The notes under the pieces: model-generated
Told to the model about the DNA's origin: nothing
Seen by the model: only the letters and a program-made list of their open reading frames with translations
Databases searched by the model: none
Part shown: piece after piece, positions 2,063-28,323 of the stretch
How the letters are laid out: the number at the start of each line of letters is the position of its first letter
Position numbering within the stretch: the stretch's first letter is position 1
Source: Escherichia phage Phi06_2974 B
Length of the DNA stretch: 28,538 nt
Sequence record: KM389306.1
Direction: 5' to 3' (one strand)
Translations under genes and position numbers: made by a program

Positions 2063-4527
2063 CAGCTGTACCTCCTGCGTTGTTGCTGAGCCAGCAGACG
2101 CTCCAGCATTTTCTCCAGCTCATGCAGGCTCATATTCAGTACGCCGGTCAACCCGTCAGGCGCTGCGGTTTCTTTGCCATTGAGGAAAAACTGAGGATTA
2201 AAGCTGACCTGGATACCGCCAGATGTTCCGCTGCCAGTTGCAGCTGCGCCACGACCTGAATATCCCGCCGCCATGATTTCCGGCGACGGGATACGGGGAA
2301 CATCCGGTGTCATTTCAGTGGCCAGACGCTGCCCGGCCAGTGCAGCAAGTGGTGTGGTGCGCTGCAGGCCGATAGCTGCTCCCTGCGCGATGTTGTCACC
2401 AAAGCCTATAAACACGCGGCTCGGCGAATGAATGCCCAGCTTTTCCTTGAACCAACCGCCGACGCTGTCGCCCATATCTGTGACGGTGGTTTTGAGCGAC
2501 TCCCATTTGTTTTTGATGCCGTTAATCAGGCCGTCGATAAGATGGCCACCGAAGTCGGTGAACTTCGCTGGCAGATCAACACCGAGGTATTTCAGCGCAG
2601 CCGCAAAGGCTTTATAGAGCAGACCAACCGGCGACCAGTTAATCAGCAGCTTACCAATCCCCACGACACCGCCATTAAACGCCTCTTTAATGTCAGCCCA
2701 GCGCTGTTTAAACCAGCTACTGACTGCGCCCCAGTTGCGATAAATAAGGTAAGCTGCTGCCGCGACGGCGGTGATGGCGAGACCAATGGGATTCATCAGC
2801 AGCGCCCGGCCAATCCAGAGAACGGCCCGCCCGGCGATCATAATGCCGCGAACCAGCCCACCTGACAGCACACCACCCAGTGTTCTGGCTCCTCTGGCGA
2901 CGGCGCTGAAGCCGGTCACCAGCCAGCGGAGCTTACCGCCTTCACCGAGTGCAAGCGACAGTCGAAGCCAGTTGGCCCGCAGTAAAACGGCATTTTTCCA
3001 GACGTTAACAAAGGGGGAAATAAGGAGATTCAGCCCCAGCTTGAGACCGATAGTGGCCATCTTGAAAGCGAGTAATGCTCCTACAACCTTTATGGTGCCG
3101 CTGACGATTTGCGGGTTTGCCGCTATCCATTTGCCGACACTGTCCATTAAAGGAATAAAAGTCTCACCCAGTTGGATCAAGGCCGGGCGTAGTGACTCAC
3201 CAATGCTGATGGCTGCCTCGTTAAAACCAATCTGAGTTCTGCGCCAACGACCTTCGAGCGTATTATTTTGTTTTGCAGCATCCTTATCCAGCGTAGACAT
3301 TGCTGACGGGGTATTCATTTCCTGCTTGCTGGAAAGGTATTTATCCCAGCCCTGACGCATTGACAGTAAATGGTTAACGGTCTGAATATCAGTGAAGACT
3401 TCTGCCAGACCAAATGACTCCATTAGCTTCTGCTGGCCTTCCTGATCGCCTCTTGAGCCTGCTGCTTTCCATTGCTGTAAAAACGCCTTACCTTTACCGT
3501 CGATAAAACGGTTGGCAATCATCAGTGAGGCTTCATACTGTGAGAAGCCCTGAGCGACGTAATTCTGCATTGACCCCTGGTAATCCACCCCGGCTTTAGC
3601 ATATTTCTGGATGGTATCTCCGCGCCCCATCGCCGCCAGCCAGTTTGACATATTGGTGACGGCCTCTTCCGCTGAGCCGCTGCCTTTACCAACTTCCAGA
3701 CTGGCGACGATCTGGGTAATCGCATCTTTTCCATAAATACCACGAGCAGCGAAGGCTTTAGCCATACCGGGTAATGCTTTTGCCATATCCTTCAGCTCAA
3801 ATGACCCAAGTTTGGCTCCTGTTGCCGCAATACCAAATGCCTGTTCAAGTTCTTTCGCATCAGTGATTCTGAGTGCATCGCTGAAGGCATAAGTCATTTT
3901 GGCAAGGTCGGTCATATCGGCTTTGGTTGCTGTAGCGGTCTTTCCAAGCATCTCTGCAAACGTTGCTGCCCGTTCGGGGGCCATACCATCAGCAACTAAT
4001 TGTCCGACTCCCCCTAACAGAGACTCCTGCAGTTGGTTAACCTTCAGCGAGGCCTGTCTGATAGCCAGGCCAATTGCACGTTCCTGCCTTGAATCCAGAT
4101 CACCAGTGACACTGATATCCCGCAACTGCGATTCAAACGAGGCATATTGTTTGACTGAGGCCATGACCGGTGCACCCAGTGTTCTGACGATGGCATAGGT
4201 TTCTGCTCCCTGGCCATAGAGCGCCATGCGGTTAGCTTTCAGCGCGTCACTGGTGGTTGATACTGCTGACAAACGGCGCTGCTGGCGCTCAATTTGCTCC
4301 ATTGTGCGGCTTACCCGCAGCAGGTCGCTGTTGAGGCGCTGCATCCGGGAAGAACCCAACTGACCATAGCGTTCTGTTGCACGGGTTAAGGCGTTTTGGC
4401 GTTCCTGCAGGCGGCGCGATGTATCGCCCAGGGAATCAAGGGCGCGTCGGGTACCGCTGACGGCTGAGCGGAAGCTACTCCCGACAATGCCGCCAATAAT
4501 GACGCCGACTGAAAATTCACTGGCCAC
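2062..4527 (-). CDS. tail tape measure protein
   Basis: ORF track 821 aa; GTG start with SD AGAGGA 8 nt upstream; coiled-coil-rich N-terminus, hydrophobic Gly/Ala-rich central segments, position downstream of chaperone pair. Confidence 0.8.
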   Translation of the reverse strand: MASEFSVGVIIGGIVGSSFRSAVSGTRRALDSLGDTSRRLQERQNALTRATERYGQLGSSRMQRLNSDLLRVSRTMEQIERQQRRLSAVSTTSDALKANRMALYGQGAETYAIVRTLGAPVMASVKQYASFESQLRDISVTGDLDSRQERAIGLAIRQASLKVNQLQESLLGGVGQLVADGMAPERAATFAEMLGKTATATKADMTDLAKMTYAFSDALRITDAKELEQAFGIAATGAKLGSFELKDMAKALPGMAKAFAARGIYGKDAITQIVASLEVGKGSGSAEEAVTNMSNWLAAMGRGDTIQKYAKAGVDYQGSMQNYVAQGFSQYEASLMIANRFIDGKGKAFLQQWKAAGSRGDQEGQQKLMESFGLAEVFTDIQTVNHLLSMRQGWDKYLSSKQEMNTPSAMSTLDKDAAKQNNTLEGRWRRTQIGFNEAAISIGESLRPALIQLGETFIPLMDSVGKWIAANPQIVSGTIKVVGALLAFKMATIGLKLGLNLLISPFVNVWKNAVLLRANWLRLSLALGEGGKLRWLVTGFSAVARGARTLGGVLSGGLVRGIMIAGRAVLWIGRALLMNPIGLAITAVAAAAYLIYRNWGAVSSWFKQRWADIKEAFNGGVVGIGKLLINWSPVGLLYKAFAAALKYLGVDLPAKFTDFGGHLIDGLINGIKNKWESLKTTVTDMGDSVGGWFKEKLGIHSPSRVFIGFGDNIAQGAAIGLQRTTPLAALAGQRLATEMTPDVPRIPSPEIMAAGYSGRGAAATGSGTSGGIQVSFNPQFFLNGKETAAPDGLTGVLNMSLHELEKMLERLLAQQQRRRYS

Positions 4528-5941: not shown

Positions 5942-7368
5942 CAGCTATTCCCCTTCAGGGTTAACAGGTATTCCGAGGTGATCTCGGTCTCAAACGTCAG
6001 TCGCTCCAGCGGCGGTGGCGGCGTGTATTTGTAGCTCAGCAACAGATGACCGGCGGCCAGCTCCATCTCTTCATTACGGGCCGGATCAAACCAGCAACTG
6101 AAGCCCAGCAGTGCACCGTCGCCAATCAGCTTGCGACCGTAGGCGTTGACCGACTCCGTCAGCGCATCAATCAGTGCCTGGGTAATCGGCATGTCGATGT
6201 ACTGCTGGCTGAAATAACGCAGGGACTCGTTGATAACATCACCGGTGCGGCGAACGTTCTCAAAGTTGCGCATATGGGTGACCGTTGGCCATGCTGCCGT
6301 CCGGTTGCCCCACAGACGCAGGCCGCTGCCGTAGCTGCTGAAGACCGTAGTGATGCCCTGTTCGTTGAGCAGGTTCACCTCGCTCTGCGGGTCATCAATC
6401 ATTGCCGACAGCTGGCGCTCCACGCCGGTGATACCCAGAATCTCCTGGTTGGAGGACGACCACCAGTAGCCCTTGTCCAGGTCGACCTTGGCACGCAGAC
6501 CTGCAGCACGCTGGCTCAGCGGCTCCAGCCGTTCGCTGTTGGTGGCCGCGTCGTACACCTTGACGTGCGGATAGCACAGACGGACGCGGTCGGAGCTGGT
6601 ATTGAAGTTAATGGTGCCTTCCGGGCCACGCCCCGCCAGAGCCTGCGCAAAAGTGGTACCAATCGGCGCGTCGATGTAGGTCACCGCGCCCAGCTTCTCA
6701 GCCATGGCGATAAGCTCAACCGAGACGCTGTTCTGGGTGCAGAATACCGGGGCAATCAGAATTTTGGCGAAGTAGCCAAACAGGTTGAAGCTGTCGTTAA
6801 GCAACTTCATGCCGGTACGGTTGCCTGCCGCGTTAACGGTACCGATGATATCAGCCGGGGTGACTTTGGTCGGATCGGCATAGTTATAGCTGGCCTTCAC
6901 CGTTGCATCTGCAGCAATGCTTTTACCAAGATTAGTAATCACCCCGGTCTGCGCATCAAGCGAGTAGTCCTGACCTTCCACATAAGGCTGACCGTCGCTG
7001 TCCGGTTTCAGTACCAGCTGCGCGATCACCGGATTAGCCAGCTGTGCCTTGCCCGTCGCCTTGTCGAATGTTACGTCTTCATCGGCCACAGCGGTTTTAT
7101 GCACAGCCGGATCAAGCACGTTAATGACCAGAACGGTGCCTGCCCCATGGTCGTAGATCGCATCCAGTGCCTGCGGAATGGTAAAGCCAGTGAGCTGGCT
7201 GCCAAACGCCGCTGCATCTTTCTCAGACAGGCACTGCACCAGCGTATTGACGTCTCCCATTGGGGCGGTACCAATCAGGCCAATGACGGCGGATTTCACC
7301 GTTTTAACCGGGCGGGCACCGTTTTCCACCTCAATGGTTTCGACGCCATGCAGATAGTTAGCTGACAT
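5941..7368 (-). CDS. tail sheath protein
   Basis: ORF track 475 aa; ATG at 7368 with SD GGAGG; size and order (sheath-tube-chaperone-tape measure). Confidence 0.8.
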   Translation of the reverse strand: MSANYLHGVETIEVENGARPVKTVKSAVIGLIGTAPMGDVNTLVQCLSEKDAAAFGSQLTGFTIPQALDAIYDHGAGTVLVINVLDPAVHKTAVADEDVTFDKATGKAQLANPVIAQLVLKPDSDGQPYVEGQDYSLDAQTGVITNLGKSIAADATVKASYNYADPTKVTPADIIGTVNAAGNRTGMKLLNDSFNLFGYFAKILIAPVFCTQNSVSVELIAMAEKLGAVTYIDAPIGTTFAQALAGRGPEGTINFNTSSDRVRLCYPHVKVYDAATNSERLEPLSQRAAGLRAKVDLDKGYWWSSSNQEILGITGVERQLSAMIDDPQSEVNLLNEQGITTVFSSYGSGLRLWGNRTAAWPTVTHMRNFENVRRTGDVINESLRYFSQQYIDMPITQALIDALTESVNAYGRKLIGDGALLGFSCWFDPARNEEMELAAGHLLLSYKYTPPPPLERLTFETEITSEYLLTLKGNS

Positions 7369-9854: not shown

Positions 9855-10952
9855 TTACAGGCAGCGGGAGACAGCAGCGTCGTAGCTGATGCCTTCTTTT
9901 TTCGACAGTTCCAGCGCTTTCTGATGCAGCGCCAGACGTTCCGGGTCGGCTTCAGCGAACTCTGCTGACGTCGTTTTGATCTCCGTGTTCACGCGGTCTT
10001 TGGTCGCGTGCTCACTGAAATTCAGTACCGGCTCAGTGCTGTCCAGCAGCGTCTTAAACGCCGTGGCCAGAGGGGTGCGGATATCGCCTTCGGCAAACTC
10101 AACCGGCTTGTCGCCTGCAGAGACCGCGTCCAGAATGGCCACGACAACCGACTTCGCTTTAGGAGCCAGTCGGCCATCGCCAACCAGCTTCTCGGCAAAG
10201 GAGACGTTGTCCGCGTGCAGTTTGTCCTGCTTAGCCTTCGCTTCCTGTTCCGCCCGCTGGGTGGCTTCCGCTTTCAGACGCGTGTTTTCCGCCTGAAGCG
10301 CTTTGATTTCTTCTTCAGTCATGGTGCTGTTCTCTTTTTGAGGGGTGGGATTGTGTTCACTGAAGTCCGGTTCAGACTTCCCGGTGTCGCGGTAAGCCTC
10401 TTCACGCAGGGAGTCCACCTGCCATGAAGGAAGCACCTTGTCGGTCTCGTCCAGCCCGAACTGGGCGATCAGAAAATCGCGCAGACGGCCCCATAAAGAG
10501 GCATTGGTGATATCACTCCAGTCGGCAAACTCCACGACGCCTTCTTCTTTCTCACCAAACGAAACCTGCTTAAGCCCCTTAATGGACGGTGGCTGCGCCC
10601 CCAGAAAGCCGACATGACGCAGGTAAAGCGTGCCGGGCTTCGGGTTGTTCGGTGAGTCCGGGAGATAGAACGAGGCTGAGACCTTCTTGAAGCGCCCGTT
10701 GCCCACCAGTTCGGCAAACTGCGGGTCGAGCTGGTCAGGCTCAGCCAGCAGATCGCCGCCGTTAAGCGACAGGGATTTCACCCAGCCCCACGCCGGGTCT
10801 TCCGTTTTGGGGTGGCCAATAACGAGTGGTGCTTCATGGACGGACGGGTCATAGGCTTTCACGCAGGCGGCAAGATCGCTTTGCGTGAACGGCAGTTTCG
10901 TGCCGTGCATATCGGTATGAGTACCGGCTTTAAAAATGTGAATGGCTGGCAT
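9855..10952 (-). CDS. prohead protease / scaffold protein (Mu I-like)
   Basis: ORF track 365 aa; N-terminal domain plus C-terminal charged coiled-coil region (scaffold-like); order G - I - T. Confidence 0.7.
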   Translation of the reverse strand: MPAIHIFKAGTHTDMHGTKLPFTQSDLAACVKAYDPSVHEAPLVIGHPKTEDPAWGWVKSLSLNGGDLLAEPDQLDPQFAELVGNGRFKKVSASFYLPDSPNNPKPGTLYLRHVGFLGAQPPSIKGLKQVSFGEKEEGVVEFADWSDITNASLWGRLRDFLIAQFGLDETDKVLPSWQVDSLREEAYRDTGKSEPDFSEHNPTPQKENSTMTEEEIKALQAENTRLKAEATQRAEQEAKAKQDKLHADNVSFAEKLVGDGRLAPKAKSVVVAILDAVSAGDKPVEFAEGDIRTPLATAFKTLLDSTEPVLNFSEHATKDRVNTEIKTTSAEFAEADPERLALHQKALELSKKEGISYDAAVSRCL

Positions 10953-10956
10953 TTTG

Positions 10957-10984
10957 CTGTCCCGCGTTACGTTGTCGGGGACAG
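10957..10984 (-). promoter_or_regulatory. stem-loop (CTGTCCC / GGGACAG, 14-nt loop) 5 nt upstream of the I start codon
   Basis: Read directly from sequence; on the mRNA it would cover the weak ribosome-binding region of gene I. Confidence 0.3.
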
Positions 10985-11086
10985 TCTGTGGAAAAAGCGT
11001 CAGCAGCGCTTTTAATCTGCTTTAGAAAAAATCGGGGGTATCAGTACGGGGAATGTCACGCTGCGGGCGAATAGTGGTGCAAAGCG

Positions 11087-11122
11087 GGGGCTGTAAAGCC
11101 TTTATAAAGGTAATACAGCCCC
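11087..11122. promoter_or_regulatory. 36-bp near-perfect palindrome in the G-I intergenic region
   Basis: GGGGCTGTAAAGCCTTTATAAAGGTAATACAGCCCC: outer 9-bp arms perfect, core CCTTTATAAAGG perfect palindrome; 30 of 36 positions symmetric. Confidence 0.5.
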
Positions 11123-11166
11123 TCAGCGGCTGGCAATGATAAATCACCCGCCTGCAGAGACAAAAC

Positions 11167-11625
11167 TCAGCGACGGGCCGCTGCTTCAAGATGGCGGACA
11201 ATCGTATCGAGGATAGGGACAACCACTTCAGGCTGCAGCTCACCGTCCCCCGTCAGCGGCAGGAACGGACGGGCAGGAAGTTCAACGGACTCATTACGCC
11301 CCGTTTTACCCCCAAACTGGTGAATCGGCCCATAAACGACATTAGTGCCAACCGCTGCCTGCCGGTCGTCATGGTCGGTTGATACCGACCCCATCAGACG
11401 CCCGGTATCCTGCAGCGTTTGCCCGTCGCGCTCCTGCGCTGCCAGCGAGGGAGTCCACCCCGGACGCCCCTCATCGAGAAAGTTAAACTGCGTTTCCGCC
11501 AGCAGGGTTCCGGCGATTTTGCGCATCGCGGGTTCCAGGTCTGTGGCAGCAAGATCCAGCGCACGGAGGCTCCGGCGCAGGGATTCATCGTTAATGGTGA
11601 CATTGACCAGGTTATCGGAAGCCAT
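11167..11625 (-). CDS. virion morphogenesis protein (Mu G-like)
   Basis: ORF track 11167..11892 trimmed to ATG 11625 (SD GAGAGGA) just after F-like stop at 11628; 152 aa. Confidence 0.6.
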   Translation of the reverse strand: MASDNLVNVTINDESLRRSLRALDLAATDLEPAMRKIAGTLLAETQFNFLDEGRPGWTPSLAAQERDGQTLQDTGRLMGSVSTDHDDRQAAVGTNVVYGPIHQFGGKTGRNESVELPARPFLPLTGDGELQPEVVVPILDTIVRHLEAAARR

Positions 11626-17277: not shown

Positions 17278-18004
17278 AGCTGCCGCCTCCCCAGGTGAGA
17301 TAACGCGGGGCCAGTTCGTGCAGGATGCGCTGCGGATAATGACGGTTCTCCCGCCAGTTGGCAGTGCTGCGTCCGGCATTCACCGTGGCGACATGACCAA
17401 ACCAGCGGGTGCTGTCCAGCCCCTGCTGCGAGGCCAGCCGTTTGTCCCGCTGTACCCAGCCCAGACCACCGTTATAGCCTGACAGCGTCATGGCCATACG
17501 CTCGCAGTCATTGACGGCGCTGACGCGTTGCCACAGCCAGCGGTCATAGCTGACCAGCGCCCGGATGGCCCAAGACGGATTAAACGGTTCACGGCTGTTA
17601 AGCCCCGGCATCAGCTGACTTATCCAGTCAGCGGTGGTGGGCATAAACTGCGCCAGTCCCTGAGCGCCAACCGGCGAGACCGCATCAGGTCGCCAGCCGC
17701 TTTCCTGATGCAGCTGCGCGGCGAAGTCGGCCACCGGCGCAGACATTCCCCATTCAAGCCGGGCATTACGGATCACATCGTCGCGATACTGCAGCGCGGT
17801 CTGCGGTGGCTGGGCAGCGCGGGCCTGACTGAAGAAGCCGCCACACCAGAGCAGCCAGGCTACCGTTACTGAACCAAAGAGCTGCCACCAGAAACTGTGC
17901 TTACCCGTTCGGGCCTGCCCGTGGCGGGCCAGTTCGATGCCCAGCCCCAGCAGTACCAGCACGGCCCAGACAACCTGAGGCCAGTACATATAGAGGGTCA
18001 TCAT
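17267..18004 (-). CDS. endolysin, lytic transglycosylase (SLT) type with hydrophobic N-terminal signal-anchor (SAR-like) region
   Basis: ORF track 245 aa; motifs QESGW...GLAQFMP...SGYNGG consistent with SLT family; residues ~5-60 contain two hydrophobic stretches; ATG overlaps holin stop (TAATG). Confidence 0.65.
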   Translation of the reverse strand: MMTLYMYWPQVVWAVLVLLGLGIELARHGQARTGKHSFWWQLFGSVTVAWLLWCGGFFSQARAAQPPQTALQYRDDVIRNARLEWGMSAPVADFAAQLHQESGWRPDAVSPVGAQGLAQFMPTTADWISQLMPGLNSREPFNPSWAIRALVSYDRWLWQRVSAVNDCERMAMTLSGYNGGLGWVQRDKRLASQQGLDSTRWFGHVATVNAGRSTANWRENRHYPQRILHELAPRYLTWGGGSCVD

Positions 18005-18354
18005 TAAAGCCCCATCGCTACGGCCAGACAGACTGCAGCAACAATCAGCGCACGGCGGATTAGCGCAGCAGAAAAGACCAGGTGAAGGCCAGTCTGGACA
18101 GGGAAGCGACCATCAGCCATCAGCCTGTCATCATGCTTCAGGTACTGACCGGGACGGGCTTTGGGGAAAAGCGAACGGTCAAGCCAGTAGCCCAATACTG
18201 CCGCCAGCGTGATGAGTGATAGCTTGTAGACAACCACCGGCAGCTGCTGGGGCGATACCAGACCGATGGTGCCGAGCAGCAGCACAGCGGTCAGCAGCCA
18301 GCCGCTGAGACGTGGCTTTTTAACAGGGGGAATGAATTTTTTCAGGTTTTTCAT
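18004..18354 (-). CDS. putative holin (three predicted TMDs)
   Basis: ORF track 18004..18387 (GTG) trimmed to ATG 18354 with SD AAGGAG at 6 nt; 116 aa with three hydrophobic segments; first gene of lysis cassette. Confidence 0.5.
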   Translation of the reverse strand: MKNLKKFIPPVKKPRLSGWLLTAVLLLGTIGLVSPQQLPVVVYKLSLITLAAVLGYWLDRSLFPKARPGQYLKHDDRLMADGRFPVQTGLHLVFSAALIRRALIVAAVCLAVAMGL

Positions 18355-18466
18355 GAGCGTCTCCTTGTGTAGTGGAGACAGCATCACAAATGGTCGGGGA
18401 AAGGGATTTTAAACAGCGTTAATAGTGAGGATGCAGACGTGAACCGCATGATGGCTTTGAAAGAAC

Positions 18467-18498
18467 GACCAGCCCGGTGCGGTAACACCAGGCTGGTC
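18467..18498. promoter_or_regulatory. stem-loop (GACCAGCC...GGCTGGTC, ~12 bp stem) in the region between late operon and methyltransferase gene
   Basis: Inverted repeat read directly; no U-tract on the plus strand, short UUCUUUC on the minus strand. Confidence 0.3.
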
Positions 18499-19419: not shown

Positions 19420-19953
19420 TTAATCCTGCCTTGGACAAGTCCAATAATCATTATCTGGCTCTGGTGAATAAGCTTTCAAACAACCTGCTCGCGGGGTCTT
19501 ACCATCATCTGTCATAGGAACTTTTTCCTTATCAAGTTTCACGGTCAGGTCTCCACCAGGAACATCCGTTTTATCGAAAAAAACAGCCTGACATGCTGAT
19601 TTAGATATTTTCACTTCGTGGGCATTATTTGATATGAACAAATAACAATTATGACCAGAGGCTATGTAGTCACTTGGAATATTATTTTCGTCTTTAATAT
19701 GAAACTGCACCGTTGTCACCGGGCGTTCGCTATCCTCGGATACTTCGACTTTTTCAAAACTGTCCGCGTACTTATCCAGGCCGGGGAGTTGTTGGCGAAT
19801 AAACGGTAATTCGCGATTTACAACCGGATTATCTGTTTCAACGCTAAAAACCGCGTGCTCCTTAGCTGTGGTGGACGTATCAGCAGGATCGGTATTATCT
19901 CCACACCCAGATAAAACAAATATCAACGGTAAAAATAATTTGCGCATAGTCAT
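19420..19953 (-). CDS. lipoprotein of unknown function (moron downstream of repressor)
   Basis: ORF track 177 aa; N-terminus MTMRKLFLPLIFVLSGC = signal peptide + LSGC lipobox; visibly lower G+C than flanking phage genes. Confidence 0.6.
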   Translation of the reverse strand: MTMRKLFLPLIFVLSGCGDNTDPADTSTTAKEHAVFSVETDNPVVNRELPFIRQQLPGLDKYADSFEKVEVSEDSERPVTTVQFHIKDENNIPSDYIASGHNCYLFISNNAHEVKISKSACQAVFFDKTDVPGGDLTVKLDKEKVPMTDDGKTPRAGCLKAYSPEPDNDYWTCPRQD

Positions 19954-19988
19954 GTCCTTATACCTCTAATGTTCTTAATAGGAACAGA

Positions 19989-20399
19989 TTAACCCGTATT
20001 TTTTAATCTTTCGAACGCTGCGGACAGCTCCTTAAGCTGTTTTTCCATATCAATCATTCGCTGTTTTTCCTCAGCGCCTCGCAGCAACTCTTTTCGCACC
20101 TCTGGCTCCAGTTGGTTGAGCAGCTCCAATAACTTCAGATCAGACTGGTTGAAATGCTGCTCCTGATTAGCTGGCTGTGCTTTCTCTACCCCAACAGCTT
20201 CCCCTTTACCAGTAAGTAGCCAATCTATTGATATGTTCAAATGGGTGCTTAGCGCAACAAGAGCCTCTGCATTAGGTTCTCTCTCTCCACGCAGATAGTT
20301 TTGAAGTGAGCGATATGGAATTTTTGACAAGTCTGACAATGCCTTAATTGTCAGACCCTTAGCATCCATCGCTTCGCGCAATCTCTCTTTTATACTCAT
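19989..20399 (-). CDS. prophage repressor, XRE-family HTH with coiled-coil C-terminus
   Basis: ORF track 19989..20495 (TTG) trimmed to ATG 20399; MSIKERLREAMDAKGLTIKALSDLSKIPYRSLQNYLRG... typical Cro/CI-type HTH; divergent from early operon. Confidence 0.65.
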   Translation of the reverse strand: MSIKERLREAMDAKGLTIKALSDLSKIPYRSLQNYLRGEREPNAEALVALSTHLNISIDWLLTGKGEAVGVEKAQPANQEQHFNQSDLKLLELLNQLEPEVRKELLRGAEEKQRMIDMEKQLKELSAAFERLKNTG

Positions 20400-20487
20400 T
20401 TGAACATATCTCAATTTGACATACCCGTTTGGGTGCGTACAATAGACCCAATAGAGTACATCATAACCCAACAGGAACACGGTGCAT
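20400..20487. promoter_or_regulatory. divergent early promoter/operator region
   Basis: Plus strand: -35 TTGACA (20416..20421), 16-bp spacer, -10 TACAAT (20438..20443); direct repeats CAATAGA at 20440..20446 and 20450..20456 overlap the -10. Confidence 0.45.
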
Positions 20488-20712
20488 ATGAACAAACAAC
20501 AAGTTCGGGCACGGCTGGTTGAAAGAGGCAGTAGCTTGCGCCAGTTCGCGCTTAACGCGGGCTATGAGCCACGAACAGTCACCCAGGCTGTCAGCCGCTG
20601 GGCAGGCAAAAGCGAACTTCCACGCGGTCGTTTGACTTATCGGATTTTGCGAGACCTTTCGGTCGCAATAGGCAAAGAAGTTACCCCCGGCATCCTCAAG
20701 GAGGCGTCATGA
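20488..20712 (+). CDS. Ner/Cro-like small DNA-binding protein (first early gene)
   Basis: ORF track 20482..20712 (GTG) with ATG at 20488; 74 aa; segment LRQFALNAGYEPRTVTQAV resembles Ner-family HTH. Confidence 0.5.
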   Translation: MNKQQVRARLVERGSSLRQFALNAGYEPRTVTQAVSRWAGKSELPRGRLTYRILRDLSVAIGKEVTPGILKEAS

Positions 20713-21014
20713 GTAAACCAAATACATCAAGCTCAGGTACCCGTATTTTGCGTGTCCTTAAGGCTTTACGCGGTCACGCTCTGAACGGTGTTTCTAACGG
20801 CGAGCTGGCGTCAGCTCTGGGCGAGTCCCCGGCGAATATCAATCGGGCGCTCAATACCCTTATCGAAGAAGGACTGGCCCTGAAACTGGATAACGGGCGT
20901 TTTGCCCCAGGAGTCCAGCTCTTACAAATCGCCATGGCGCACAGTACCGAAATGGCGCGGGCGCAGGATCGTATCAATGAAATTAACCAGCGTGTTATGG
21001 CTGGTAGTCGCTAA
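20709..21014 (+). CDS. winged-helix DNA-binding protein (IclR/MarR-like N-terminal domain)
   Basis: ORF track 101 aa; ATGA overlap with previous gene, SD AAGGAGG; ILRVLKAL...NGELASALGESPANINRALNTLIEEGLA looks like a wHTH. Confidence 0.45.
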   Translation: MSKPNTSSSGTRILRVLKALRGHALNGVSNGELASALGESPANINRALNTLIEEGLALKLDNGRFAPGVQLLQIAMAHSTEMARAQDRINEINQRVMAGSR

Positions 21015-21023
21015 GGAGTTGAA

Positions 21024-21932
21024 ATGGGACGCACAAAATCACAACCAGTTGAACTAGTGGAAGATGCACCGCTGACCGATGGTCTCAGTGTCAGTCTTAA
21101 TGCTATGTCCGAACATCGCCTCGAAATCATGCAGCAGTTTGGTGATGGCCTGCCGTATGAACGTGATCGTATTGTCCATGAAACACGTTTTTATATGGCT
21201 CAGAGTGCTGAAGCCATGCTGGAGGCGGGTAAACGACTGGTAATTCTCAAAGAAAATGAACCACATGGTGACTTCATCGACATCGTTGAGTCTCAGTTGT
21301 CCCTGTCCAAACGTACCGCGCAGGTGATGATGCAAGCATCCCTCAAATATTTGTCTCCCAAGCTTGAACCAAAAGCGCAAGCGCTTGCGCTTTTGGGTAA
21401 AACAAAGCTGTTTGAGTTGATGACGGAAGATGACGAAGACCTCGTCGAATTAGCCGATGGCGGCACGATTGCTGGTATGAGCCTCGATGATATTGATCGC
21501 ATGACAAGCCGCGAACTGAAAGCGGCCCTACGCGAAGCGCGTGAAACCAACGCAGCACAACAGCGCGTGCTTGCCGACAAAAACGAAAAAATCGACTCGC
21601 TCTCCACAAAACTGGAGAAGAAATCCCGTATCCAGCCGCCCAAGCCTGACGAAGAGGTGAAGAAGCTGCGTGCGGAAGTTACAGCGTTAGCGGTTGAGGC
21701 GGAATCTGCCATCGCCGTTCGACTGTCCAGCGCCTTTGAGACCCTGTGCGCATACTGTGCTGAAAATATGATTGATACCCCCAGAGACTTTATGGCCGGT
21801 CTGGTCTGCCAGTTGGAAAGCACCGCGCGTAGCCTGCGCTCCACATTTGACCTGCCGGACGAGCCGACAGGCAACGCCGCCCCTTCATGGCTGACTGACC
21901 CGACGCCAGAGATTAACGGGCAGGAGGCATAA
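21024..21932 (+). CDS. conserved hypothetical protein (DUF3102-like as recalled), coiled-coil central region
   Basis: ORF track 302 aa; SD AAGGAG; segment EAGKRLVILKENEPHGDFIDIVESQLSLSKRTAQVMM resembles a family I recall as DUF3102 (unverified). Confidence 0.4.
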   Translation: MGRTKSQPVELVEDAPLTDGLSVSLNAMSEHRLEIMQQFGDGLPYERDRIVHETRFYMAQSAEAMLEAGKRLVILKENEPHGDFIDIVESQLSLSKRTAQVMMQASLKYLSPKLEPKAQALALLGKTKLFELMTEDDEDLVELADGGTIAGMSLDDIDRMTSRELKAALREARETNAAQQRVLADKNEKIDSLSTKLEKKSRIQPPKPDEEVKKLRAEVTALAVEAESAIAVRLSSAFETLCAYCAENMIDTPRDFMAGLVCQLESTARSLRSTFDLPDEPTGNAAPSWLTDPTPEINGQEA

Positions 21933-27519: not shown

Positions 27520-27937
27520 GCAGCGTCTTATTCAACTCATTCATATTGCCCGCAGCGACCTCCAGATGGATGAGGACACCTACCGCCAGATGCTACAGGG
27601 GCTGACCGGCAAAGCCTCAACCAAAGGGATGGATACCCCACAGCTAAACCGCGTGCTGGAATCAATGAAAAAGAAAGGCTTTCGCATTAAGCCTGCCGGG
27701 AAAGCCAAGTCCGGCTTACCGCTCGACAGCCATCCGCAGTCAAAGAAAATCCGTGCGCTATGGCTTGAAATGGCTGCCGCAGGCATCGTCCGTGACAGTT
27801 CAGAGCAGGCGCTGGCGCTGTGGGTTAAACGGGAAACCGGCATCAGCGCGTTACGCTGGCTCAGCAATGAGCAGGCAAGTAGCGTGATTGAGAAACTGAA
27901 GAAGTGGCAGCGCAGAGCTGCGGGAGTGAAGCAATGA
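27509..27937 (+). CDS. gemA: GemA-like regulatory protein (Mu gp16 family)
   Basis: ORF track 27320..27937 trimmed to ATG 27509 (SD AAAAGGAG); 142 aa MMTKQRLIQLIHIARSDLQMDEDTYRQML... resembles Mu GemA; directly upstream of Mor homolog as in Mu. Confidence 0.55.
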   Translation: MMTKQRLIQLIHIARSDLQMDEDTYRQMLQGLTGKASTKGMDTPQLNRVLESMKKKGFRIKPAGKAKSGLPLDSHPQSKKIRALWLEMAAAGIVRDSSEQALALWVKRETGISALRWLSNEQASSVIEKLKKWQRRAAGVKQ

Positions 27938-28323
27938 GCGACCTGAATCAGTTTCGTAGTAAAGGGCCGGAACTGTTGGTGGAACTGGCACAGCATACCT
28001 CTGAGACTGTCCGCGAGATTATTGATATCGAACCCGCAGTTGCCGACCAGATTGGTCAGGCCGTCGCGAACCGCATGATGCAGGTCTGGGGTGGGCAAAA
28101 CGTCTATTTTCCGATGGGCATGGTCTGGAAGGTCAGCCAGCGCGACCGGGAAATTTTCCTGGAGTTTGACGGGCGCAACCATCACGAACTGGCCCGCAAA
28201 TTTGGTGTTTCACTACAGTGGGTTTACAGCGTGGTGAAGCGGGTCAGAAAAGAAGAACTGGATCGGATGCAGGGCAAACTGTTTGATGGCGAACCTGATG
28301 CCGATACAGGGAAAAAGGAGTAA
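27934..28323 (+). CDS. mor: Mor/C-family transcriptional activator (middle/late gene activator)
   Basis: ORF track 27904..28323 trimmed to ATG 27934 (overlaps gemA-like stop); 129 aa with C-terminal HTH region YFPMG...ELARKFGVSLQWVYSVVKR typical of Mor/C family. Confidence 0.65.
   Translation: MSDLNQFRSKGPELLVELAQHTSETVREIIDIEPAVADQIGQAVANRMMQVWGGQNVYFPMGMVWKVSQRDREIFLEFDGRNHHELARKFGVSLQWVYSVVKRVRKEELDRMQGKLFDGEPDADTGKKE

Follow-up and report, generated by a model that had tools for sequence, protein, structure and literature searches.

In the transposable phage Mu, a strong gyrase site (SGS) lies between genes G and I at the centre of the genome (PMC2628397, PMC10052514). The site has to be central, and phased bending within its right arm is also needed (PMC2628397, PMC10052514, PMC3820752, PMC13284261). 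Topo-Seq yields a gyrase motif that is symmetric, spans 130 bp and has flanks with a period of ~10.75 bp (PMC6379681). A study of phage KS10 reported no similar gyrase site (PMC2628397). The Mu annotation AF083977 places the G stop codon at 17859, the gyrase cut at 17879^17880, a terminator at 17908-17953, a late promoter at 17977-18043 and the I gene at 18056. To our knowledge, only Mu and its closest relatives have a demonstrated strong gyrase site, and sequence searches in other transposable phages have failed. Here, we describe the G-I intergenic gap of Escherichia phage Phi06_2974 B (KM389306.1; positions 10953..11166 of the 28,538-nt stretch analysed, hereafter the window), which is a BcepMu-type transposable (Mu-like) prophage of E. 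coli. Judged from sequence, the gap may be a Mu-type central control region throughout this family, a reading that we hold to be plausible but somewhat short of probable.

The gap resembles the Mu G-I region in its flanking genes, its length (196 nt in Mu, 214 nt here), its near-central location and the order of elements past the G stop codon. Both regions also have a C-rich, G-poor stretch before I and a hairpin across the boundary between promoter and 5'-untranslated region (5'-UTR) just before I. However, no sequence can be aligned between them save an 11-mer, and the activator box reads TAAAsnnGATTAAAAG here versus CCATAAcCCC in Mu; a global alignment of the two gaps likewise gave no meaningful similarity. 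Mu encodes Mor plus C, whereas a single Mor-family protein is present here. Moreover, the AT-rich centre is here a perfect palindrome conserved family-wide, and cleavage has been demonstrated in Mu, whereas the present site is a candidate from sequence. In the literature, G-I elements of the BcepMu family (promoter, palindrome motif or gyrase site) were not found described.

Relatives were collected with the I protein or an I-protein alignment as query; species-representative genomes contributed 21 loci and IMG/VR 80, and BcepMu, phiE255, phiSHP3, KP12 and PhiKM were added. Ninety loci contain both G and I, with 81 gaps of 185-267 nt and nine with inserts. Anchored comparison resolves six layers from G to I: variable hairpins past the G stop codon; an invariant TTTATAAAG(G/C) core; a C-rich spacer; a near-invariant TAAA(G/C)nnGATTAAAAG box; a hexamer 20 nt further on; and a hairpin abutting the ATG.

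The first-pass annotation had singled out a 36-bp near-perfect palindrome in the gap, and this stands as described: 18-nt arms (11087-11104 and 11105-11122) pair at 15 of 18 positions (83%; 30 of 36 positions symmetric) with no spacer. Its family-wide conserved part is the 10-bp core CTTTATAAAG alone, present as exact TTTATAAAG in 79 of the 90 related gaps. The core reads CCTTTATAAAGG among enterobacterial lineages and GTTTTATAAAGG in BcepMu, with GCTTTATAAAGC in other lineages. A search of the window for additional copies of the palindrome, the core or spaced variants found none beyond chance. The core is consistently central, at 49.6% of 34,463 bp in the window prophage, 50.6% of 37,566 bp in an E. 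coli variant and 51.0% of 36,748 bp in BcepMu; in Mu, gyrase cuts at 48.7% of the genome. The first-pass annotation had noted neither the central position nor the parallel with the Mu SGS. On either side of the core, AT-rich patches recur each 10-10.5 bp, forming a phased region of ~140 bp in fixed phase with the core that is a candidate for protein-wrapped or bent DNA. Averaged over 22 lineages, these patches fall at 0, ±10, ±20-21, ~±31, ~±42 and ±52 bp from the core centre. Among 12 lineages with flanks 29% identical in register, the phase coherence of the 10-10.5-bp component was R = 0.86-0.92 (P < 0.001), and R = 0.72-0.84 with the central ±22 bp excluded. Within the window, the 130-bp segment reaches the 99th percentile for 10-11-bp periodicity, as does the Mu SGS in its right arm, and is the fourth highest peak in the prophage.

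This positional and structural support makes the core with its phased flanks a candidate for the strong gyrase site of the phage, an assignment that we advance only tentatively. With slightly greater reserve, CTTTATAAAG and its phased flanks of ~±70 bp could represent a second class of strong gyrase site unrelated in sequence to that of Mu or, in broader terms, a dedicated genome-centre site that loops the prophage for end synapsis. Several observations weigh against a gyrase site. Conserved gene order alone would also give a central position. Control anchors gave R = 0.18-0.78, with high values (0.67-0.78) in homologous coding DNA and at the activator box, and periodicity is weak in BcepMu (32nd percentile; 91st in its own genome). 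The family AT profile correlates weakly with the Topo-Seq consensus (r = 0.22, or 0.35 for the flanks only, with the peak at shift 0/+1). The 11-mer GCGGGTGATTT shared with Mu is marginal and inverted (P = 0.028 against pMP1000 by shuffling; P = 0.35 against AF083977). When the published 133-bp consensus was turned into a GC/AT template, the true Mu SGS came only sixth (symmetrised) or fell outside the top six; as this positive control failed, the template was not used as evidence. If a gyrase site is nonetheless present, transposable phages of beta- and gamma-proteobacteria would share a gyrase-site requirement that this family has solved with a recognisable, searchable motif. If it is not, the region would still be an ordinary Mu-type terminator-plus-promoter junction. 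The conserved central motif with its phased flanks makes it possible to ask, concretely and at low cost, whether transposable phages in general use gyrase to assist end synapsis, and supplies a pattern with which such sites can be searched for.

Symmetry and conservation are also what an operator would display, and the core could instead bind a dimeric sequence-specific protein, either as a Mor-family auxiliary, decoy or roadblock site or as the target of another phage or host regulator. It is a perfect dyad of 10-12 bp conserved in sequence, the half-site TAAAG/CTTTA is seen again both within the Mor box and beside the Mor site of the Mu promoter Pm, and many lineages have an extra TAAA(G/C) 10 nt upstream that creates a box-like TAAAs-N5-TAAAG. 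However, the core occurs once per genome, is absent from the holin and gpW promoters, and is followed by no -10 hexamer at 20 nt on either strand (sequences read by eye). Fixed-distance action with a promoter is further contradicted by cargo of up to 2.2 kb that can separate the core from the I promoter (PI). The core is also unlike the early-operator region and the transposase end repeats, and an operator leaves the phased flanks out to ±70 bp unexplained; we thus regard this alternative as unlikely. An earlier proposal that the palindrome is a repressor operator finds no support either, with no related dyad in the early region (19930..20730) or elsewhere in the window. The core was also considered as a transposase end-type site and rejected, the end repeats being G(C/A)GATAAAT.

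Nor is the core likely to be a promoter, with TATAAA as its -10 element, that drives cargo (moron) genes where these are present and a leader transcript elsewhere. TATAAA matches the -10 consensus at five of six positions, forward cargo open reading frames (ORFs) begin ~60 nt downstream in three loci (L073, L087 and L093), and some lineages carry a -35-like xTGAAA at 16-17 bp, with 23% scoring at least 4/6 compared with 10% of background. However, TATAAA lacks the T at -7, only 1/6 of the -35 positions match in the window, the family mean of 2.48 equals the background of 2.36, the promoter scan makes no call, and cargo lies on the opposite strand in L090, L097 and L108. A promoter at the core is accordingly improbable.

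Outside the core, the palindrome is specific to lineages and may act as RNA. Its outer arms, allowing three mismatches, occur once in the window compared with 0.02 occurrences expected by chance, and only four inverted repeats of this size are present in 28.5 kb. The 53-nt palindrome RNA segment has a predicted folding energy of -24.1 kcal/mol (z = -5.0). Strong enclosing stems with unrelated arms occur in 11 of 37 representatives, including CCCGTAAAG/CTTTACGGG in BcepMu, GCCATAAAGC/GCTTTATGGC in L087 and CAACGCC/GGCGTTG in L058. On the sense strand, all arm substitutions seen produce either G-U or new A-U pairing, both in the clade of the window (L005, L040) and in the Burkholderia clade (phiE255, L069/L072). 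In BcepMu, TTTGGTT comes directly after the hairpin, which passes the U-tract rule and was scored as terminator-like; in L040, the major E. coli variant (614 genomes), the tail is the T-rich CTGTTTTATA, and a sub-hairpin passes the rule. The extended palindrome is best read, from its sequence, as one of several devices that would end or insulate the upstream late transcript; of the functions previously suggested for it, a terminator-like insulator is the one that fits in the lineage of the window. Like intrinsic terminators, it has a GC-rich stem past the last gene of an operon and T-rich tails in its BcepMu and L040 equivalents. Unlike them, the window copy has a poor U-tract, and the interior is conserved while the stems vary. 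Three points tell against a terminating role: the window tail CGCTTTGC fails the rule of five T in eight and the terminator scan does not call the palindrome, the outer stem is absent in many lineages including the close L011 group, and a separate terminator-like hairpin already lies on the G stop codon.

The same data bear on whether the palindrome could be an RNA element and nothing else, that is, an intrinsic terminator or 3'-end stabiliser in which the AU-rich core provides the apex of the hairpin, a U-rich tract or an RNase E site. The strength of the hairpin, the agreement of all arm substitutions with sense-strand pairing, the terminator-like calls in BcepMu and L040 and the predicted Mu terminator at the equivalent place are all consistent with such an element. 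In lineages without outer arms, moreover, the core comes right after another strong hairpin, where it might serve as a U-rich tract. However, terminators keep their structure and not their loop, whereas here the 'loop' is invariant and the stems vary, the U-tract of the window is poor, and the symmetric phasing on both sides of the core would be unexplained. We consider a purely RNA-level role quite unlikely, and retain the distinction between a DNA-level core, which may be a gyrase site, and RNA-level arms. Between the core and the I promoter, the untranslated spacer has a (C-G)/(C+G) value of +0.43; 51 of the 52 unique relatives show a positive skew, with ~0 in the flanking coding sequence, as expected for a Rho loading region.

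[quoted passage not shown] When these are aligned on the C box CCATAAcCCC, their -10 hexamers, which include TAGACT, CAAACT, TATCCT and TAAGAT, all fall 20 nt past the box. The gap holds a comparable arrangement, in which an activator box is placed 20 nt before a -10 hexamer, without a -35 element. The box (11024..11009) and hexamer (10988..10983) very probably constitute a Mor-dependent PI, to judge from their sequence and conservation. TAAA(G/C)nnGATTAAAAG is found in 76 of the 90 related gaps and is kept down to ~47% I-protein identity. The late strand of BcepMu has two copies of TAAAGCCGATTAAAAG and no more, one (at 11486) lying 69 nt ahead of the holin ATG and the other 37 nt ahead of the annotated I ATG. 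A weight matrix made from I-side boxes ranks the site upstream of the window holin third in the window; upstream of holin, the box and the DNA that follows it form the sole conserved stretch, and the sequence 5' of the box is unrelated (mosaic) between E. coli relatives. In every lineage and at three promoters, a hexamer with A at position 2 (A-11) and T at position 6 (T-7) follows exactly 20 nt past the box: CAGACT at the window PI, GATGCT at the holin promoter, and CAAGAT, GACCAT, CACGCT or AATACT elsewhere. This defines a late-promoter grammar for the family, namely Mor box, 20 nt and -10 hexamer. The suggestion that I has its own late promoter in the gap is thus borne out, with the layout repeated before holin and gpW. 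The palindrome, also put forward as the activator operator of PI, is not that operator; the activator site is a separate element 80 nt downstream (11024..11009) common to the holin and gpW promoters.

The predicted activator is the Mor-family protein of the prophage, which shares 53% identity with BcepMu gp01 and 30% with Mu Mor (in an alignment including Mu C). Its helix-turn-helix (HTH) is near-identical to that of BcepMu, which explains the invariant box. In Mu, Mor binds a dyad at -51..-36 of Pm, a promoter without a -35 element (PMC4287176). The present box, too, is an imperfect dyad; it sits right upstream of the -35 position (~-48..-33) in a promoter lacking a -35 element, and the Pm site region and the BcepMu box have GTAAAGCCG(G/A)TTAA in common. 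The two systems differ in that Pm drives the C gene whereas the box here would drive the late structural and lysis operons directly, and the right half-site is different. By analogy with Mu, transcription from PI would start near 10976/10975. That assignment is itself a weak point of the account, as a start just past the box would make the hairpins ordinary 5'-UTR structures. Use of the box-internal TAAAAG as a -10 element, with a start just past the box, was considered and dropped, given the A-11/T-7 hexamer 20 nt further on in all lineages and at three promoters, as in Mu. The promoter scan called no sigma-70 consensus promoter at PI. Elsewhere in the gap, a sigma-70-like TTGTCT-16-TATCAT (9/12; 11136..11163, minus strand) begins in the G stop region and overlaps the 11-mer resembling the Mu SGS; this promoter match is not kept in the L011 group.

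Sister promoters with the same layout show additional features. At Plys, before holin, an inverted repeat GTCTCC...GGAGAC extends from the discriminator to the holin ribosome-binding site (to ~18358). Approximately 40 nt upstream of the holin box is a strong hairpin GACCAGCC...GGGCTGGTC followed by GTTCTTTC (18459..18498, minus strand), together with a small dyad CTTTCAAAG; this hairpin could block transcription from the repressor side, the repressor gene being on the same strand. The gpW promoter consists of the box, 20 nt and AATACT (L025 ~6320..6376, minus strand, outside the window) or CAACAT (BcepMu, L029 ~30771..30825), with the -10 element in the loop of a GC-rich inverted repeat and only 6 nt from hexamer to ATG, a spacing that predicts a leaderless mRNA. 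In Burkholderia-type relatives (L026/L029 18813..18865; L067, L070, L075-L079 and L089), the PI hexamer likewise stands 6 nt (often GGCGGC) from the ATG; without a ribosome-binding site, a leaderless I mRNA is predicted. In BcepMu, gp32 is annotated as starting in the hairpin loop, 12 nt upstream of this ATG, and phiE255 is annotated at the downstream ATG.

A second hairpin abuts the I start codon. The 7-bp stem noted there in the first-pass annotation is real, though it ends 4 nt before the ATG and not 5 nt: CTGTCCC (10984..10978) pairs with GGGACAG (10963..10957), and RNAfold extends the stem to nine pairs (-13.1 kcal/mol, z = -3.3). Equivalent hairpins are found in 17 of 18 divergent representatives, starting with the final two bases of the -10 hexamer, ending 2-7 nt before the AUG, with stems that are entirely different among lineages (CUGUCCCCG/CGGGACAG, CUGCCUCUAUUA/UAAUAGAGGCAG and CUGUGCGC/GCGCACAG). 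In the enterobacterial clade, 92% of hairpin cells are paired, and changes are mostly C-to-U, producing U-G pairs on the sense strand, which points to selection on the sense RNA including the 5' arm. The same design is seen at the holin promoter (GUCUCC...GGAGAC over AAGGAG) and at Mu PI (CTGCTCA...TGAGCAG). Because the predicted transcription start falls inside the 5' arm, the hairpin is expected only in read-through RNA from upstream. The hairpin may therefore couple late-gene translation to initiation at the gene's own promoter, a proposal for which we judge the chances to be even. It would amount to a safety device in which late-gene ribosome-binding sites are masked in read-through RNA.

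From the observed sequence anatomy, conservation, covariation and positional parallels to the Mu annotation, we infer gyrase binding, Mor binding, transcription start, termination and a translational effect, which can be arranged in four layers. In the first, hairpins would close the upstream lysis/head late transcript, with the 36-bp palindrome as the largest of these RNA-level terminators or insulators in the lineage of the window, followed by the C-rich, G-poor spacer resembling a Rho loading site. In the second, the core CTTTATAAAG would serve as a DNA-level element at the genome centre, possibly a strong gyrase site that pairs the prophage ends for replicative transposition, as in Mu. The third would be PI, 80 nt downstream (16-bp Mor box, 20 nt and -10, without -35), presumably activated by the Mor-family protein of the phage. 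In the fourth, the start-proximal hairpin would form only in upstream read-through RNA, sequestering the I ribosome-binding site, and PI-started transcripts would be free for translation. As a whole, this account of the gap as the BcepMu-family counterpart of the Mu central G-I control region is credible, if not quite an even prospect.

The G-I junction is also a slot for accessory genes. In the phage group of Ab30, it is the position of anti-CRISPR genes, and the first-pass annotation had pointed to anti-CRISPR/aca cassettes at this junction in Mu-like Pseudomonas phages. Comparison of junctions among relatives upholds the slot: inserts of 444-2244 bp occur in nine of the 90 loci (L016, L019, L063, L073, L087, L090, L093, L097 and L108), and no anti-CRISPR or aca homologue was identified among them, nor any convincing match to PADLOC models. 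Cargo encodes an EEP-family nuclease and a 177-aa protein of no recognised family in L016 (767..2497) and L019, HEPN/RES-domain proteins of 432-479 aa on the opposite strand in L090, L097 and L108, a DUF2158 protein in L087, and proteins without a recognised family in L063 and L073; in L093 the cargo gene is split by an insertion sequence (IS). These are possible defence or toxin modules. The arrangement resembles the anti-CRISPR (Acr)/aca locus of Casadabanvirus (Pseudomonas Mu-like phages) in occupying the same post-G junction, where Ab30 has inverted repeats and three small ORFs and BcepMu-family relatives have cargo. However, the slot is empty in the window, the cargo of relatives is of the nuclease, HEPN/RES and DUF2158 types, and the palindrome is unrelated to the Ab30 GGCACAnTGTGCC repeats. 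The segment of Ab30 proposed as an SGS consists of inverted repeats beside small ORFs and was set aside as not comparable. Just past the G stop in Pectobacterium and Brenneria relatives (L017 and L016, ~2310..2340), a GCGGCAC...GTGCCGC hairpin has a superficial resemblance to the Ab30 GGCACAnTGTGCC repeats (L192 1155..1200), a likeness that is probably coincidental.

Inserts also separate the elements of the gap from each other. Cargo lies upstream of the core in L016 and L019 and between core and box in the other seven loci, six of which (L073, L087, L090, L093, L097 and L108; the seventh being L063) keep the core 72-74 nt past the G stop codon. That the core stays on the G side when cargo is inserted indicates that it acts independently of PI. 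This distribution also bears on whether the palindrome is the remnant or scar of a lost cassette, a REP/MITE-like repeat or part of a small protein-coding gene. Such origins might be entertained because the junction is a cargo slot in nine of 90 relatives and because RAST calls a 41-aa ORF here in Klebsiella phage KP12. However, a TTTATAAAG-type core persists upstream of the insert in seven of the nine cargo loci and exact TTTATAAAG in 79 of 90 gaps, which removes the earlier suggestion of a remnant. The element is single-copy in the window, the gap sequence has a median of one matching site per E. coli genome, indels break the frame, and no family or Rfam match was found; we consider all three origins extremely unlikely. 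Among exact 16-mer matches in IMG/VR, 36 of 80 (~45%) adjoin a G or I homologue, L199 comes in addition with a Mor box, and the rest are in unrelated AT-rich contexts; the core is thus not a dispersed repeat.

The prophage family is present in ~12% of complete E. coli genomes (637 of 5426), in each of which the slot is empty (637 of 637 copies). The major variant, carried by 614 of the 5426 genomes, has a gap ~79% identical to that of the window. This variant, as seen in L193 (E. coli C9, NZ_CP059281.1, 1147..38712), is 3.1 kb longer, is inserted in the lateral-flagellar FHIPEP gene, and carries Gam as well as additional genes between holin and repressor; since both of its arms are enlarged, the palindrome is still central.

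Table 1. Features of the G-I gap and related elements in the window (candidate and predicted functions are from sequence)
Feature	Position	Strand	Remarks
Family-wide core CTTTATAAAG (10 bp)	11100..11109	.	Centre of palindrome and of phased region
Phased region	11035..11175	.	AT-rich patches each 10-10.5 bp; candidate protein-wrapped or bent DNA
36-bp palindrome	11087..11122	.	Outer arms GGGGCTGTA/TACAGCCCC lineage-specific; sense RNA hairpin (-24 kcal/mol) then CGCUUUGC
GCGGGTGATTTA	11140..11151	-	First 11 nt (GCGGGTGATTT) identical to Mu SGS cleavage core in pMP1000; inverted relative to Mu; enterobacterial relatives only
Terminator-like hairpin CAGCGGCCCGTCGCTG, tail AGTTTTGTCT	11158..11183	-	Overlaps G stop codon; scan match in window and L040
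Small hairpin CAGCCGCTGAGGGGCTG	11116..11132	-	3' arm shared with the 5' arm of the palindrome
C-rich, G-poor untranslated spacer	11025..11099	-	rut-like; 40% C, 16% G on sense strand; 75 nt
Mor box TAAAGCAGATTAAAAG	11009..11024	-	Predicted Mor-family activator site; ~-48..-33 of late promoter PI
PI -10 hexamer CAGACT	10983..10988	-	Exactly 20 nt past box; without -35; predicted start near 10976/10975
Start-proximal hairpin	10957..10984	-	5' arm overlaps -10/discriminator; 3' arm holds SD-like (Shine-Dalgarno-like) GGGA of I
Sister promoter Plys before holin	18380..18421	-	Box TAACGCTGTTTAAAAT 18421..18406, 20 nt, -10 GATGCT 18385..18380
G-like virion morphogenesis gene	11167..11625	-	Pfam Phage_tail_S 1.8e-22; RefSeq 'phage virion morphogenesis protein'; last gene of lysis/head late operon; upstream gap boundary
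I-like head maturation protease gene	9855..10952	-	phrog_976, 1.1e-157; downstream gap boundary; ATG at 10952
Mor-family transcription activator gene	27934..28323	+	RefSeq 'Mor transcription activator family protein'; closes early operon

The late genes flanking these features are on the minus strand, in the order portal-F-G, gap and I-major head (Pfam, PHROG). The gap is gene-free as first described, with 214 nt (10953..11166) between the G stop codon (11167..11169) and the I ATG. The absence of an accessory ORF is likewise confirmed: two mechanical ORFs touch the gap (35 aa, 11056..11163; 73 aa, 11022..11243), both with zero Pfam or PHROG matches, and among 5426 complete E. coli genomes, none of the 637 with this gap has a gene annotated in it by RefSeq. 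Gap lengths in relatives (214, 213, 215, 211, 205, 204, 203, 195, 194 nt and others) differ by amounts that are not multiples of three, so that any reading frame would be broken. An Rfam search of 10500..11600 at E <= 10 gave zero matches.

Across 10600..11500, the window matches a prophage of E. coli CFS3292 (L025) with 100% identity, and Bcepmuvirus phages are relatives. The CFS3292 prophage interrupts gadC; its ends at 1101 and 35563, which define a length of 34,463 bp, both begin with TGAT and carry G(C/A)GATAAAT repeats. Window positions correspond to L025 positions minus 7080. The right end of the prophage is hence inside the window at ~28483 (L025 35563), with the final ~55 nt belonging to gadC. 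A further palindrome of 38 bp (21364..21401; 19-nt arms, 89% complementary) is located within the DUF3102 gene of the early operon.

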